From: a virus
Taxonomy: Duplodnaviria > Heunggongvirae > Uroviricota > Caudoviricetes
Strand: one strand, 5' to 3'
Length of the DNA: 3,913 nucleotides
Virus record (IMG/VR): IMGVR_UViG_2684622669_000022
Span: 1-3,913 of that record
A program made the position numbers and the translations under genes. Shown piece by piece: positions 1-3,913 of this stretch; the stretch's first letter is position 1, and every line of letters starts with the position of its first letter. A model generated the notes under the pieces. The model had not been told where the DNA came from. It made no database searches and was given only the letters and a program-made list of their open reading frames with translations.

Positions 1-171
1 ATGCAACAGTTCGCTATTGCAGGGGCGGCATCGGTTCGCCCTTTCAACCCGATTTTATCGGTACAGCATTCACGAAAAAATATTTTAACCGGAGCAGACT
101 TTAAACAACCAAGAATGAAAAGTTTGCTCGAAAAGCTTTGGGATATTTTGAAACAACAAGGCCGTCCATGA
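1..171 (+). CDS. cIII: Small protein (56 aa), probable CIII-like lysogeny regulator (FtsH/HflB protease inhibitor family)
   Basis: Frame 1 is open from ATG at 1 to TGA at 169-171; it is absent from the ORF track only because it is below the size cut-off. Translation: MQQFAIAGAASVRPFNPILSVQHSRKNILTGADFKQPRMKSLLEKLWDILKQQGRP. The N-terminal MQxxAIAG and C-terminal SLLE...LxDILxQxGxP resemble lambda CIII as I recall it (MQYAIAG...ESLLERITRKLRDGWKRLIDILNQPGVP). Its position upstream of the recombination genes matches the lambda pL order. The window may truncate an upstream extension. Confidence 0.45.
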   Translation: MQQFAIAGAASVRPFNPILSVQHSRKNILTGADFKQPRMKSLLEKLWDILKQQGRP

Positions 172-338
172 GTTTTACAGATAACTGGTCAGACGAAGAA
201 TTCATTCGTCAGATGAAAGAATTAATCGGTAACGAAGGAGATATTCATGTCACTTGCAACCACAGTGAAGGAGAGCAAGTTACAGAGACGCATGTACACG
301 CAGCAGGCGTTAATGTATCGCCAGAAGGGAGATCGTGA
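168..338 (+). CDS. Hypothetical small protein (56 aa), in the position occupied by kil/gam in lambda
   Basis: ATG at 168 overlaps the upstream stop as ATGA (168-171), suggesting translational coupling. Open to TGA at 336-338. The ORF track starts it at an upstream TTG (138), which I consider less likely. No recognisable motif. Confidence 0.45.
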   Translation: MSFTDNWSDEEFIRQMKELIGNEGDIHVTCNHSEGEQVTETHVHAAGVNVSPEGRS

Positions 339-425
339 AGGTGTTCGCGTATTTTTAAATGCGGCAAAGACTGAAGTATTAAATCAGCGTTATTTCCTTG
401 GGCCATGTCCATTCTGAGGTGAATT

Positions 426-1133
426 ATGGATTTGAACAAATTCGATGAGCCATTCAGCCCTGAAGATATCGAATGGCGAATACAGCAAAGCGGTAAAACA
501 CGCGATGGCAAGGTGTGGGCTATGGTGCTGGCTTATGTCACGAACAGGGCAATCATGAAACGCCTGGACGATGTTTGCGGCAAAGCAGGATGGCGCAATG
601 AATACCGCGATATTCCCAACAACGGAGGCGTTGAATGCGGCATATCAATCAGGATTGATTCCGAATGGGTAACCAAATGGGATGCTGCTGAAAACACGCA
701 GGTAGAAGCCGTCAAAGGTGGTCGTTCCGGCGCAATGAAGCGCGCTGCCGTTCAGTGGGGAATCGGTCGGTATCTGTATAACCTTGAGGAAGGTTTCGCA
801 CAAACATCTCTCGATAAAAAGCAGGGGTGGCACAGGGCAAAACTGAAGGATGGAACAGGATTTTACTGGCTCCCTCCATCGCTGCCGGGATGGGCAATCC
901 CAGCATCAGATAACAAACCATCACCAGAAAATACCAACCAGAAATCTCCATCGGTTGACTGCGAACAAATCCTGAAAGACTTCAGCGATTATGCATCAAC
1001 AGAAACTGACAAGAAAAAACTCATCGAGCGTTATCAGCGTGACTGGCAATTAATGGCTGGCAACGAGGAGGCGCAGGCTAAATGCGTTCAGGTAATGAAC
1101 ATCAGAGTTAACGAACTAAAACAGGCGGCATAA
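426..1133 (+). CDS. Rad52-family (Sak-like) single-strand annealing recombinase
   Basis: 235-aa ORF with Shine-Dalgarno GAGGTG at 416-421. It contains the block AVKGGRSGAMKRAAVQWGIGRYLY, which matches the conserved KRAxxxFGxGxYLY signature of phage Rad52-like annealing proteins, and an upstream GxxGW motif. It sits directly before ssb, as is usual for phage recombination modules. Confidence 0.8.
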   Translation: MDLNKFDEPFSPEDIEWRIQQSGKTRDGKVWAMVLAYVTNRAIMKRLDDVCGKAGWRNEYRDIPNNGGVECGISIRIDSEWVTKWDAAENTQVEAVKGGRSGAMKRAAVQWGIGRYLYNLEEGFAQTSLDKKQGWHRAKLKDGTGFYWLPPSLPGWAIPASDNKPSPENTNQKSPSVDCEQILKDFSDYASTETDKKKLIERYQRDWQLMAGNEEAQAKCVQVMNIRVNELKQAA

Positions 1134-1640
1134 ATGGCAAGCAGAGGCGTAAATAAGGTGATTATCCTTGGTCGGGTAGGACAAGACCCGGAAGTTCGAT
1201 ACTCACCATCAGGAACAGCGTTCGCTAACCTGACAATAGCCACGTCAGAACAATGGCGAGATAAAAATACTGGCGAGCAAAAGGAATTGACTGAATGGCA
1301 TCGTGTTGCTGTATCCGGGAAACTGGCTGAGGTCGTGGGGCAGTATGTGAAAAAAGGTGATCAGATTTATTTCGAGGGAATGCTGAGAACCAGAAAGTGG
1401 AAAGACCAGTCAGGGCAAGACCGTTACACAACCGAGGTTCATGTCGGAATTAATGGCGTGATGCAAATGCTTGGCGGCATTGGCGACAGCAAACAACAAG
1501 CAGCCAGCAGGCAATCACAGAAGCCACAGCAGCAATCATCACCAGCACAACACAACGAACCTCCGATGGATTTTGACGACGATATACCCTTTGCACCAGT
1601 AACTCTCCCCTTCCCTCGTCACGCTATTCACGCAATTTAA
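1134..1640 (+). CDS. ssb: Single-stranded DNA-binding protein (phage SSB) with a 15-residue extension after the DDDIPF tip
   Basis: N-terminal OB-fold region ([23 protein letters not shown]...[15 protein letters not shown]...[19 protein letters not shown]...MQMLGG) is near-collinear with E. coli SSB. A short Q/S-rich linker is followed by [11 protein letters not shown]. The start ATG directly abuts the upstream TAA (1131-1133). Confidence 0.95.
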
Positions 1641-1642
1641 TC

Positions 1643-1647
1643 AGGAG
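1643..1647 (+). promoter_or_regulatory. Shine-Dalgarno (AGGAG) for the 1654 ORF
   Basis: AGGAG lies 6 nt upstream of ATG 1654. Confidence 0.6.
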
Positions 1648-1653
1648 AAAATC

Positions 1654-1950
1654 ATGCCAGCGCCTCTGTATGGTGCGGATGACCCGCGCCGCTGTTCCGG
1701 CAATTCCGTATCGGAGGTGCTGGATAAATTCAGAAAAAACTACGATCGAATAATGTCTCTACCGCAGGAAACGAAAGAGGAAAAGGAATTTCGCCACTGT
1801 ATATGGCTTGCAGAGAAAGAAGAACGCGAGCGAATTTACCAGACATCAATCCGACCATTCCGCAAAGCCACATATACCCACTTCCCTGAATATATCGACC
1901 CGCGCCTGCGTAATTACCGCTCACGCTATGGCGCTATCAGTAATGACTGA
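1654..1950 (+). CDS. Hypothetical prophage protein (98 aa)
   Basis: ATG start with a good Shine-Dalgarno. Lys/Glu/Arg-rich sequence with no motif I recognise. Co-oriented and tightly packed within the operon. Confidence 0.7.
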
Positions 1951-1960
1951 GGAATTTACC

Positions 1961-2125
1961 ATGAGAGGACTTGCATACAATCCCGGCATTCTTCCGGAAG
2001 AAATGATTATTCGCCAACGCGTAAAGCCAATGCCATCGAGAGAGGAATTGCTTAAGAGAAATTCTTCTCCGTCAGTGAATCAAAACAAATATCTGAATGC
2101 GATGTGGCGGAGTGGGAAGAAATGA
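1961..2125 (+). CDS. Hypothetical small protein (54 aa)
   Basis: ATG at 1961 is preceded by GAGGA (1949-1953) at 7-nt spacing. The ORF track extends this frame back to 1808, but that extension overlaps the 98-aa gene and has no ribosome-binding site. Its stop overlaps the next gene's ATG as ATGA (2122-2125). Confidence 0.5.
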
Positions 2126-2640
2126 AACGAATGACACTAATTGAGATGGATGGATTTCTGAAAGGTAAATGCATCTCATGTGATTTAAAGGTTAACGAAA
2201 CAAATGCTGAATATATGGTGCGTAAATTTGCTGAAGCTGAGGCCAAGTGCGCGGCGCTGGCAGCGGAGAATGCGGGGCTGAAGTCTGGCGCTATGGACGA
2301 AATCAAGGTTATCAACCGTGGAGGGCAGGCATATTGCGTAAAAGATGGAGTGCAAGTTAATCCCATGTATGCAAGAGGGTGGAATGACTATCGCGCAAAG
2401 TTTCTGCAATCAGACACCCCAGCCACCGATGCTTTCCTGGCTGAAGTACGAGCGCAGGGCGTGGATGCTGCTATAGAAGCTGCAAAAAATCTGGTGGCCC
2501 AAGAATATGAGTATAAGGATTTCAAAGCGGCGCAGAGTGATTGCTGTATGCACCCTGGTTCAGACCTGGTAGGGAAGGTTGAAATGACTGAGTGGTTAGT
2601 TGACTTTGCTTCCCAGCTTCGCAAAGGAGTGCGGTCATGA
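2122..2640 (+). CDS. Hypothetical prophage protein (172 aa, several Cys residues)
   Basis: ATG 2122 is preceded by GGAG (2109-2112). The ORF track begins at GTG 2104; I prefer ATG 2122 because of the ATGA overlap with the upstream stop. Contains CISC, YCVKDG and DCCMH; no family recognised. Confidence 0.7.
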
Positions 2641-3305
2641 GCAACATCGATAAACGCGCATTACGTCATAGCGCAGAAAGCATAATCGGCATTCTGGAAA
2701 ACATTGCCGGGTTCGAACCATCTGATATCGACGGCGACTCTGTAGAGCTCCGCTTTGAAACTGAGGACGGTTTCGATACTGGTTGTGACGTTAGCATTGT
2801 TGACCAGTGCCAGAAAACCGCTGATGTAGTTCGGGCGCTGCTGGATGAGCTGGAAAGAAACCAGCAATACATCAAACGCCGCGACCAGGAGAACGAGGAT
2901 ATTGCGCTAACGGTAGGGAAGCTGCGTGTTGAGCTGGAAGCCGCAGAGAACAACCTTATTGATAGTGAGTGCCATGTTGCTGAACTGGAAGAAGCGCTAC
3001 ACGATAAGCAGGCGTTACTTGAAGCATCAGAGAAGCGCATAGCAGAACTGGAAGCCGAACTTGTAAGCCAGACTTACAAGTTGAACGAGCTGTCGGGCAA
3101 CTCTCCGGTAACTCCGGATGGTTGGATAAGCTGTAGTGATCGAATGCCAAGCGAAGAAGATGTTTTGGTTTATTGCTCAGACACAAAAGAGCAGATGGTA
3201 GGGTTTCACAAAGGTAAAGGGTTATTTCAATTCTTTTACATGAATGGTGTTGAGGGGGTATGTGAGCCGTCACACTGGATGCCGCTACCAGAGCCTCCAC
3301 TTTGA
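2637..3305 (+). CDS. Ea22-like coiled-coil protein with a DUF551-like C-terminal domain
   Basis: ATG 2637 overlaps the upstream stop as ATGA and is preceded by AAGGAG (2624-2629). The protein has three parts: an N-terminal domain, a central Glu/Leu-rich heptad region (LDELERNQQ...AELEEALHDKQALLEASEKRIAELEAEL), and a C-terminal module ending in HWMPLPEPPL. That ending resembles the DUF551 tail of enterobacterial prophage Ead/Ea22-like proteins as I recall them. Confidence 0.75.
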   Translation: MSNIDKRALRHSAESIIGILENIAGFEPSDIDGDSVELRFETEDGFDTGCDVSIVDQCQKTADVVRALLDELERNQQYIKRRDQENEDIALTVGKLRVELEAAENNLIDSECHVAELEEALHDKQALLEASEKRIAELEAELVSQTYKLNELSGNSPVTPDGWISCSDRMPSEEDVLVYCSDTKEQMVGFHKGKGLFQFFYMNGVEGVCEPSHWMPLPEPPL

Positions 3306-3389
3306 AAGCGAAGCTTATACATATCTTTTACATCAGCAATCTATTGTTAATCTCCAATCAATGTTACGTTGTCATCTCACTCATGCTTT

Positions 3390-3394
3390 GGAGG
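3390..3394 (+). promoter_or_regulatory. Shine-Dalgarno (GGAGG) for the zinc-ribbon ORF
   Basis: GGAGG lies 7 nt upstream of ATG 3402; it is the best consensus match in the window. Confidence 0.65.
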
Positions 3395-3401
3395 TAGTGA
3401 T

Positions 3402-3581
3402 ATGTCTTGTCCAAAATGCGGTTCTGGAAATATTGCAAAAGAAAAAACAATGCGTGGATGGTCTGGTGATTATGTGTGCTGCGATTGCGGATACAACGAC
3501 TCTAAAGACGCATTTGGAGAGCGTGGTAAAAACGAGTTTGTTAAAATTAATAAAGAACGCGAAGGCAACGAAAAAAGCTAA
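3402..3581 (+). CDS. Small zinc-ribbon protein (59 aa; CPKC ... CCDC)
   Basis: MSCPKCGSGNIAKEKTMRGWSGDYVCCDCGY has two Cys pairs about 20 residues apart, followed by a Lys/Glu-rich tail. Strong Shine-Dalgarno. The ORF track starts it at TTG 3369, but ATG 3402 has the ribosome-binding site. It is the last gene before the terminator and xis, the position of ea8.5 in lambda. Confidence 0.7.
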   Translation: MSCPKCGSGNIAKEKTMRGWSGDYVCCDCGYNDSKDAFGERGKNEFVKINKEREGNEKS

Positions 3582-3645
3582 TTTATTTATTCATATATTA
3601 ATACAATGTAACCAATATTCGAATTGAAGAACTGAAAGAACACCA

Positions 3646-3668
3646 AGCCGCCTGATGGCGGTTTTTTA
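3646..3668 (+). terminator. Rho-independent terminator (GC stem, UGAU loop, T-tract)
   Basis: GCCGCC (3647-3652) pairs with GGCGG (3657-3661) around the loop TGAT, followed by six T residues (3662-3667). The reverse strand has no T-run after the hairpin, so it should act only on + strand transcripts. Confidence 0.6.
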
Positions 3669-3712
3669 TTGCCTGATTTGCAGGTTCGATTCCCTATTCG
3701 GAGATAGCACTC

Positions 3713-3913
3713 ATGCAACACGAACTACAACCTGATTCACTGGTTGATTTGAAATTCATCATGGCTGATACTGGCTTTGGTAAAACCTTCATCTATGACC
3801 GGATTAAGTCCGGAGACCTGCCTAAAGCTAAAGTTATCCACGGGCGAGCAAGATGGTTATATCGTGACCATTGTGAATTCAAAAATAAGCTCTTAAGCCG
3901 CGCCAATGGGTAA
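3713..3913 (+). CDS. xis: AlpA-family excisionase / phage DNA-binding regulator (Xis)
   Basis: 66-aa ORF with GGAGA (3700-3704) 8 nt upstream. LVDLKFIMADTGFGKTFIYDRIKSGDLPKAKVIHGRARWLYRDHCEF fits the AlpA/Vis-type winged-helix pattern. It lies at the distal end of the early-left operon, where xis precedes int in lambdoid phages. Confidence 0.8.
   Translation: MQHELQPDSLVDLKFIMADTGFGKTFIYDRIKSGDLPKAKVIHGRARWLYRDHCEFKNKLLSRANG

Follow-up and report, generated by a model that had tools for sequence, protein, structure and literature searches.

What do two small open reading frames directly behind the ssb gene of a lambdoid prophage encode, and what might they contribute to the phage? The two ORFs, of 98 and 54 amino acids (ORF98 and ORF54), occupy positions 1654–2125 of a 3913-nt stretch of viral DNA (IMG/VR record IMGVR_UViG_2684622669_000022), which was analyzed at its full length and is called the window here. 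An earlier note, made from the sequence alone, had described both as uncharacterised and probably expressed, and had assigned no family to either. Our best explanation, with a probability of about 0.75 for the whole including both gene identities, is that the interval comprises two genes that are transcribed together as part of a lambdoid prophage's early-left (PL) operon and are located at the distal end of a recombination module of the HK75 type. ORF98 is an already well-studied protein, the anti-RecBCD protein Abc2, and ORF54 is an already catalogued DUF, namely DUF2737.

The gene order is that of phage HK75 (Erf-like, SSB, Abc2), and the window represents a lambdoid recombination module of the standard HK75 type. 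Such Rec modules consist of an annealing protein, an SSB, and an anti-RecBCD protein (Abc2), with no nuclease (PMC12315714). The window starts with a CIII-like ORF (1–171) and an Arf-like ORF of 56 aa on the plus strand (168–338), which is identical to HK75 gp33 and was aligned with HK75 gp33, HK446 gp33, and P22 Arf. These are followed on the plus strand by the gene for an Erf-like single-strand annealing protein of the Rad52 family, i.e., the recombinase served by Abc2 (426–1133; PF04098, E = 7e-26; phrog_1097, E = 6.5e-130), and by the gene for a phage SSB of the HK75 gp31 type, which shares 100% identity with its HK75 counterpart (1134–1640; PF00436, E = 1.6e-36). ORF98 (1654–1950, plus strand; ATG at 1654, TGA at 1948–1950) is separated by 13 nt from the end of ssb at 1640. 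Its Shine–Dalgarno sequence, AGGAG, can be read at 1643–1647 of the plus strand, 6 nt before the ATG. ORF54 (1961–2125, plus strand; ATG at 1961, TGA at 2123–2125) follows, and its Shine–Dalgarno sequence, GAGGA (1949–1953, plus strand), overlaps the abc2 stop codon and ends 7 nt before the ATG. The ORF54 stop codon in turn overlaps the start codon at 2122 of the next plus-strand gene within an ATGA (2122–2125). This gene, ORF172, encodes a 172-aa protein of the EaE/Oad2 family (2122–2640; phrog_614). Further downstream, we found an ORF for an Ead/Ea22 plus DUF551 protein (2637–3305), a small zinc-ribbon ORF (3402–3581), and an excisionase-like ORF (3713–3913).

Start codons and Shine–Dalgarno sequences are located exactly where the earlier note had placed them. 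The first intrinsic terminator-like hairpin with a T-run downstream of ORF98 and ORF54 is found at 3645–3664. As no other site on the plus strand looks convincingly like a terminator, and this one lies far 3' of both genes, the packing within one operon, which had been described before, is confirmed. Both ORFs are very likely expressed. The same region is present with 100% identity in the IMG/VR contig L005, and the chromosome of EPEC E2348/69 shows the same arrangement, with the PGAP labels 'phage anti-RecBCD protein' and, for the next gene, 'DUF2737 family protein'. Since the window holds 49 ORFs of at least 30 aa, ORF size alone is not significant, and gene status rests on homology and selection. 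A search of the whole window against Rfam (E up to 1) returned 0 matches, so that no known RNA element accounts for the conservation.

ORF98 is almost certainly Abc2, the P22-type anti-RecBCD protein, and by homology would share its RecC-binding mechanism. It matched PF11043 (Anti-RecBCD_p2) with an E-value of 4.3e-62 and 206.8 bits (cut-off 25), with residues 1–98 on positions 1–97 of the 97-position profile, and phrog_656 ('abc2 anti-RecBCD') with an E-value of 8e-57. The match to the P22 Abc2 chain of PDB entries 8B1T/8B1U (E = 1.4e-56; residues 1–98 on 1–97) showed about 90% identity over the full length, and the Abc2 proteins of phages IME10 and ECO26.1 3-1 are 100% identical to ORF98. 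No NCBIfam model matched ORF98 or ORF54. The Chi-recognition ('inactivated helicase') domains of host RecC are bound by the N-terminal helical part of P22 Abc2 (residues 3–66), and its Pro68 engages PpiB, a prolyl isomerase of the host; the helicase and nuclease of RecBCD are not blocked, and late steps are redirected (PMC9836394).

To define RecC contacts, we used the 15 Abc2 residues with hydrogen bonds or salt bridges in the deposited RecBCD–Abc2 contact table. All 15 of these polar contact residues are identical in ORF98 (A3, R13, C14, S15, G16, Y30, I33, M34, L36, E39, K41, K44, E45, R47, and H48), and they are largely conserved over 56 unique Abc2 sequences. The PpiB-engaging Pro68 is kept as well, inside the motif I-R-P-F-R-K. 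Within residues 1–64, the sole difference from P22 affects the non-contact position 32 (L32R), and the differences between the two proteins cluster in the last third of the chain, for which the structure shows disorder. The in-frame pN/pS of Abc2 was 0.34–0.41. As all contacts and Pro68 are identical to those of the solved complex, the mechanism described for P22 can be transferred to ORF98. The N-terminal part of ORF98 would bind host RecC, and Pro68 would engage PpiB. RecBCD re-programmed in this way would ignore Chi, would presumably work for the phage annealing protein, and would spare phage DNA ends.

ORF54 can be regarded, with very little doubt, as a genuine and expressed member of the DUF2737 family, judging from profile matches and from the selection described below. 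Residues 1–52 aligned with positions 1–52 of the 53-position PF10930 (DUF2737) profile (E = 1.2e-28; 99.2 bits, cut-off 25), and phrog_1117, a family with no assigned function, was matched over the full length (E = 1.6e-35). ORF54 is the same gene as P22 orf56, HK97 gp38, HK75 gp29, HK446 gp28, and ES18 gp44, and DUF2737 is routinely annotated by PGAP and RefSeq. PF11043 and PF10930 thus supply the families that the earlier note had not recognised. The term 'uncharacterised' does not apply to ORF98, as Abc2 ranks with the best-studied anti-RecBCD proteins of phages and cryo-EM structures of it are available; ORF54 is catalogued with no function assigned. Likewise, the proposal that small proteins in this position act on host proteins such as nucleases fits ORF98, given the homology to Abc2 and its action on RecBCD, whereas for ORF54 we can only infer such a role.

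In an alignment of 51 DUF2737 sequences, the N-terminal half varies, whereas the core is nearly invariant (P-x-P-S/T-R-E-E-L-x-x-R-N-S-F-P/G-S-V/P-N/D-x-N-K/R-Y/H-L). Seven of eight core residues are kept in ORF54 (P25, E29, R33, N34, S35, N42, and L45), and the eighth, Phe36, is replaced by Ser. Across 161 family representatives, this position is occupied by Phe in 159 and by Leu in two, and Ser does not occur. The allele of the window carries A13E in addition to F36S. The F36S allele is also found in the IMG/VR locus L005 and in several genomes, including EPEC E2348/69, and its presence in the latter indicates that it circulates. It may be impaired. ORF54 is strongly basic, with 11 Lys/Arg versus 4 Glu and a net charge of +7.

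AlphaFold2 gave models of ORF54 with a pLDDT of 62 and a pTM of 0.22 from 14 sequences, and with a pLDDT of 71.6 and a pTM of 0.27 from 51 sequences. In the latter, short and locally confident helices flank the RNSF loop, and no confident global fold was obtained from either input. Foldseek returned 0 matches for the model in the PDB, and a PDB sequence search, conducted with ORF54 alone and with the 51-sequence profile, returned only a chance match to the engrailed homeodomain (E = 0.6). Due to the low-confidence models and the lack of Foldseek matches, we draw no fold-based inference for ORF54. The models suggest that ORF54 probably folds on binding. The remote-homology and structure-prediction checks recommended by the earlier note have accordingly provided families for both ORFs, but neither a fold nor a PDB match for ORF54. 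In the literature searched, DUF2737 appears in a single paper and there as an annotation label only, and DUF2737 sequence fragments were not found in the supplements of an accessory-gene screen (10.1101/2023.04.06.535777). A P22 deletion study is uninformative on DUF2737, the eaC–eaE deletion being non-viable (PMC11016777).

DUF2737 was detected in 1368 of 5426 complete E. coli genomes (~25%) and in 681 phage records. It is therefore well conserved in related prophages, contrary to the lack of conservation that the earlier note had named as an argument against the two ORFs. Its host range is narrow: an exhaustive profile search against 1.84 billion representative proteins yielded only 100 DUF2737 clusters, and a scan with one genome per species gave five loci from Escherichia or Shimwellia and one probable contaminant. 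Virulent Guernseyvirinae (Jerseyvirus, Kagunavirus), together with similar metagenomic phages, account for about two-thirds of the phage records in which DUF2737 was detected. In these phages, it is part of a series of small genes between endolysin and small terminase (terS), far from repair genes. It has no Abc2, EaE-like neighbor, or adjoining recombination genes there, yet its protein core is conserved and it still overlaps the following gene. Several database entries were set aside. The longer DUF2737 'fusion' proteins (P0139–P0145 and P0108) look like gene-calling artefacts, caused by upstream in-frame extension or by read-through into the next gene, and P0209, retrieved by the exhaustive DUF2737 search, is an unrelated repeat protein. 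The depositor label 'RNA polymerase inhibitor' of a Kagunavirus cluster has no Pfam support and was not used as evidence.

In temperate phages, the gene lies in a conserved neighborhood. As the sampled loci are the best search matches, and the sample is thus biased towards close relatives, the following counts apply to such a set: abc2 is located at most 400 nt upstream of DUF2737 in 87 of 92 temperate-type loci, and an EaE/Oad2-like gene lies directly downstream in 88 of 92. The DUF2737 stop codon overlaps the next start codon (ATGA or GTGA) in 90 of 92 loci, virulent phages included. Where abc2 and DUF2737 are adjacent, their spacer is almost always 10 nt. Several loci depart from this arrangement. 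A DUF5405-type gene is inserted between abc2 and DUF2737 in ES18, HK446, and L089, and mEp021 has a distant Abc2-like gene that is not followed by DUF2737. In L079–L082 and L084, RecT, a Mu-Gam-like protein (Sipho_Gp157), and a 104-aa helix-turn-helix protein replace Erf, SSB, and Abc2, and DUF2737 followed by the EaE-like gene is still present despite the missing abc2. We considered the 104-aa protein as a possible relative of P22 Abc1 and rejected this candidate, as BLASTP gave no alignment between the two.

The downstream neighbor connects ORF54 to a locus that has been studied in HK75 and HK446. ORF172 shows 47% identity to HK446 gp27 (E = 7e-32) and local identity of 37% to P22 EaE. According to a 2026 preprint on this system, gp33 triggers the abortive-infection nuclease OLD of P2, and HK446 gp27, i.e., Oad2, a relative of P22 EaE, inhibits OLD and is reported to be sufficient on its own; a homolog of Oad2 from HK75 with 54% identity does not inhibit OLD (10.64898/2026.07.10.737580). 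The trigger, HK75 gp33, corresponds to positions 168–338 of the window. In HK446, gp27 overlaps the stop codon of the DUF2737 gene, gp28. The 'Rec locus' constructs used in that work comprised gp33, Erf, gp31, and Abc2, and the DUF2737 gene was left out (10.64898/2026.07.10.737580).

Given these data, several explanations for ORF54 have to be weighed. The idea that it is a chance ORF, a conserved spacer, or a dead allele could draw on its shortness, on the lack of a confident fold, and on the Ser at the nearly invariant position 36 together with A13E. It is, however, hard to reconcile with the pattern of selection. Over 55 unique DNA sequences, pN/pS was 0.18 in frame versus 2.16 and 1.29 in the other frames (an earlier estimate gave 0.12 in frame), and purifying selection spans the whole of ORF54 rather than just its 3' end. 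Moreover, the ORF is intact with 54–60 aa in all 88 DUF2737 loci checked, the motif is common to phage groups that match only at the protein level (tblastn), the Shine–Dalgarno sequence is strong and ideally spaced, and the F36S allele persists in several genomes, E2348/69 among them. A non-coding or spurious ORF54 is thus essentially excluded, and we consider this explanation highly improbable. ORF54 could instead serve the downstream gene, either as a translational-coupling leader or as a partner of the variable EaE/Oad2-type gene, with DUF2737 and EaE forming the unit. The nearly universal ATGA/GTGA overlap, which extends to virulent phages, and the EaE/Oad2-like gene in 88 of 92 temperate loci would fit such a role, and so would the persistence of the pair where abc2 is separated (ES18 and HK446) or replaced (L079 type). 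Furthermore, the gene directly 3' of DUF2737 in HK446 encodes the anti-OLD protein Oad2, and the last codons of ORF54 (W-R-S-G-K-K) include the sequence GGAG at a distance of 9 nt from the downstream ATG. Yet Oad2 alone is reported to suffice against OLD (10.64898/2026.07.10.737580), amino-acid-level selection is seen along the entire ORF, and the core remains conserved in virulent phages, in which the next gene is unrelated to EaE. As SETP7 gp65, located 3' of DUF2737 in Jerseyvirus, is not EaE/Oad2-like, a universal DUF2737–EaE cassette was rejected. We therefore regard a role in the service of the downstream gene as unlikely.

An accessory function in the hijacking of RecBCD by Abc2 is an equally obvious candidate: ORF54 might stabilize Abc2, join the RecBCD–Abc2–PpiB complex, or link this complex to Erf/SSB. 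This is suggested by the close and evenly spaced abc2 upstream and by the nearly equal numbers of near-full-length phage records (224 for Abc2 versus 223 for DUF2737) with the same organism breakdown. In addition, the loci lacking abc2 still carry an anti-RecBCD-type Mu-Gam-like protein in the upstream module, and Abc2 expressed alone is reported to be unstable, with a disordered C-terminus (PMC9836394). The tight linkage is, however, fitted equally well by shared function and by shared ancestry of a mosaic block. The RecBCD–Abc2 complex was formed and solved by cryo-EM without the DUF2737 protein (PMC9836394), an inserted gene between abc2 and DUF2737 is tolerated in ES18 and HK446, mEp021 has its distant Abc2-like gene without DUF2737, and DUF2737 is kept in virulent phages of the Guernseyvirinae type that have neither Abc2 nor adjoining recombination genes. 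Hence, an Abc2 accessory also appears improbable. The reading that we prefer, tentatively, is that ORF54 might be an autonomous small early protein directed at the host, serving takeover or counter-defence and folding on contact with its target. ORF54 is probably autonomous, as DUF2737 occurs without either neighbor in virulent Guernseyvirinae, and the autonomous role fits best because virulent phages that infect the same hosts keep the gene without Abc2/EaE, because the host range of the gene is narrow, and because the protein has no independent fold. As such a factor, ORF54 would fold onto an enterobacterial host target and would not be an obligate cofactor of Abc2; ribosomes ending ORF54 would pass directly to the next gene via the ATGA overlap. 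A more specific and rather doubtful proposal is that DUF2737 could be a counter-defence or host-takeover peptide that neutralizes a system guarding RecBCD, or a conserved enterobacterial protein, via its R-E-E-L-x-x-R-N-S-F loop. Together with this goes the equally doubtful idea of a hotspot in which phages would stack RecBCD manipulators and inhibitors of those defences that sense RecBCD manipulation, with DUF2737 between abc2 and EaE/Oad2. If DUF2737 acted in this way, virulent Guernseyvirinae would carry it because their hosts exert the same pressure.

For annotation, these results mean that ORF98 should carry the name abc2. Among the prophage genes of E. coli and Salmonella, DUF2737 ranks with the most frequent ones, and it is nothing surprising in itself. 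The remaining value of the locus lies in ORF54, which is under purifying selection and has family members in temperate lambdoid as well as virulent Guernsey-type phages. Its locus has been identified in recent work as a hotspot of RecBCD manipulators (Abc2 and gp33) and inhibitors of RecBCD-guarding defences (Oad2), and DUF2737 is a cheap and well-defined candidate for a deletion or expression screen.

Comparison with known systems places both genes more precisely. T7 gp5.9, lambda Gam, and Mu Gam are likewise small proteins made early, with genes that lie within or next to recombination modules, and the DUF2737 gene adjoins abc2 or Mu-Gam-like genes; however, PDB sequence, profile, and Foldseek searches showed no similarity of ORF54 to them in sequence or fold. 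By mimicking DNA, T7 gp5.9 competes for the DNA-binding site of RecBCD (PMC9836394). A RecBCD inhibitor of this type was rejected for ORF54, as a protein with a net charge of +7 cannot be a DNA mimic. With P22 orf56, HK97 gp38, HK75 gp29, HK446 gp28, and ES18 gp44, ORF54 shares its length, the core motif, the place after abc2, and the overlap with an EaE-type gene, and it differs from them by Ser in place of the nearly invariant Phe36 and by Glu in place of Ala13. Although ORF54 itself is unrelated to Oad2 (HK446 gp27) and P22 EaE, the translationally coupled ORF172 is a 47%-identical relative in the same counter-defence hotspot. Compared with P22 Abc2, ORF98 has 98 instead of 97 aa, both lengths being common among Abc2 proteins; one residue is inserted and several are exchanged in the C-terminal third, the disordered part. 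In P22, abc2 is preceded by abc1, whereas ORF98 is preceded by the SSB gene, as in modules of the HK75 type and not of the P22 type. In both phages, however, the gene is located distally in the recombination module of the PL operon and has the same 3' neighbor, orf56/DUF2737.

Upstream of the annealing-protein gene erf, two 56-aa ORFs lie on the plus strand in different frames (168-338 and 247-417) and have 92 nt in common. The first is Arf-like and its product is identical to HK75 gp33, for which a role as trigger of the P2 abortive-infection nuclease OLD has been reported (preprint 10.64898/2026.07.10.737580). The second is preceded by a strong Shine-Dalgarno sequence (AAGGAG), matches phrog_1723 over its full length, and ends so close to erf that the start of the latter follows 9 nt beyond. 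This second ORF was unbroken in all 36 unique sequences obtained from 58 loci, and its pN/pS was 0.18-0.29 in its own frame, whereas the alternative frames, among them that of gp33 inside the overlap, gave 0.8-3.0. It is absent from the annotations of HK75, HK446, and the EPEC chromosome E2348/69.

At 2122-2640 (plus strand), a gene of the P22 EaE family is translationally coupled to ORF54, the 54-aa DUF2737 ORF. Its product is 47% identical (E 7e-32) to HK446 gp27 (Oad2), recently reported to inhibit the P2 OLD defence (10.64898/2026.07.10.737580). The first 38 residues and one 14-residue motif are conserved between loci, whereas the middle of the protein varies strongly from locus to locus. 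Inhibition of OLD is reportedly not shared by the homolog from HK75 (10.64898/2026.07.10.737580), so that the protein encoded in the window may or may not have this activity.

ORF54 itself carries an unusual allele. Codon 36 (TCT, 2066-2068, plus strand) encodes Ser at a position that is almost always Phe in the family (159 Phe, two Leu, and no Ser among 161 family representatives), and codon 13 (1997-1999, plus strand) encodes Glu in place of Ala. Since F36S is common to the window, the IMG/VR locus L005, and EPEC E2348/69, it is a rare but circulating variant. Elsewhere in the family, some proteins from public genomes (P0001, P0012, and P0131) have a portion of the DUF2737 core repeated internally as a short tandem duplication, for example PFPTREELMKRNSFPTREELMKRNSFPG in P0131 and a duplicated stretch of 15 residues in P0001; either genuine variation or errors of assembly may account for this. 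A DUF2737 gene was also located at 4941-5093 of an 18,987-bp contig assigned to Taishania pollutisoli (L090, NZ_JACVEL010000022.1). The encoded protein is 98% identical to its counterpart in the Salmonella Jerseyvirus SETP7, and a contaminated assembly, with phage or enterobacterial sequence in it, seems likelier than a true occurrence in this species. In the Kagunavirus fEg-Eco06 (L004), the third gene after DUF2737 (3554-3739) bears the depositor label 'RNA polymerase inhibitor (similar to 2LMC_A)', for which Pfam searches at E-values up to 0.01 gave no support.

Immediately ahead of the terminator, a plus-strand ORF of 59 aa (3402-3581) encodes a zinc-ribbon protein with the pattern Cys-X2-Cys ... 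Cys-X2-Cys. Its match to the restriction-alleviation family Lar (PF14354) remained below threshold (23.4 bits, cut-off 28.6), and it matches phrog_2945, a family without assigned function, over the full length. Homologs with 86-100% identity are present in many related loci, including P22, where the counterpart occupies the position annotated as eaG.

Chi sites (GCTGGTGG) were not found on either strand of the window (1-3913), which is uninformative by itself, as only 0.11 sites are expected by chance in a stretch this short. Still, the result does fit the reported scarcity of Chi in phages with an anti-RecBCD gene, which mostly contain few such sites (PMC12315714).

As read from the sequence, the SSB encoded at 1134-1640 carries the acidic tip motif D-F-D-D-D-I-P-F internally, followed by 15 further residues. 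In E. coli SSB, a motif of this type forms the extreme C-terminus and serves as the docking site for partner proteins. Because the tip is internal in the phage protein, unlike in its E. coli counterpart, partner binding may be altered.
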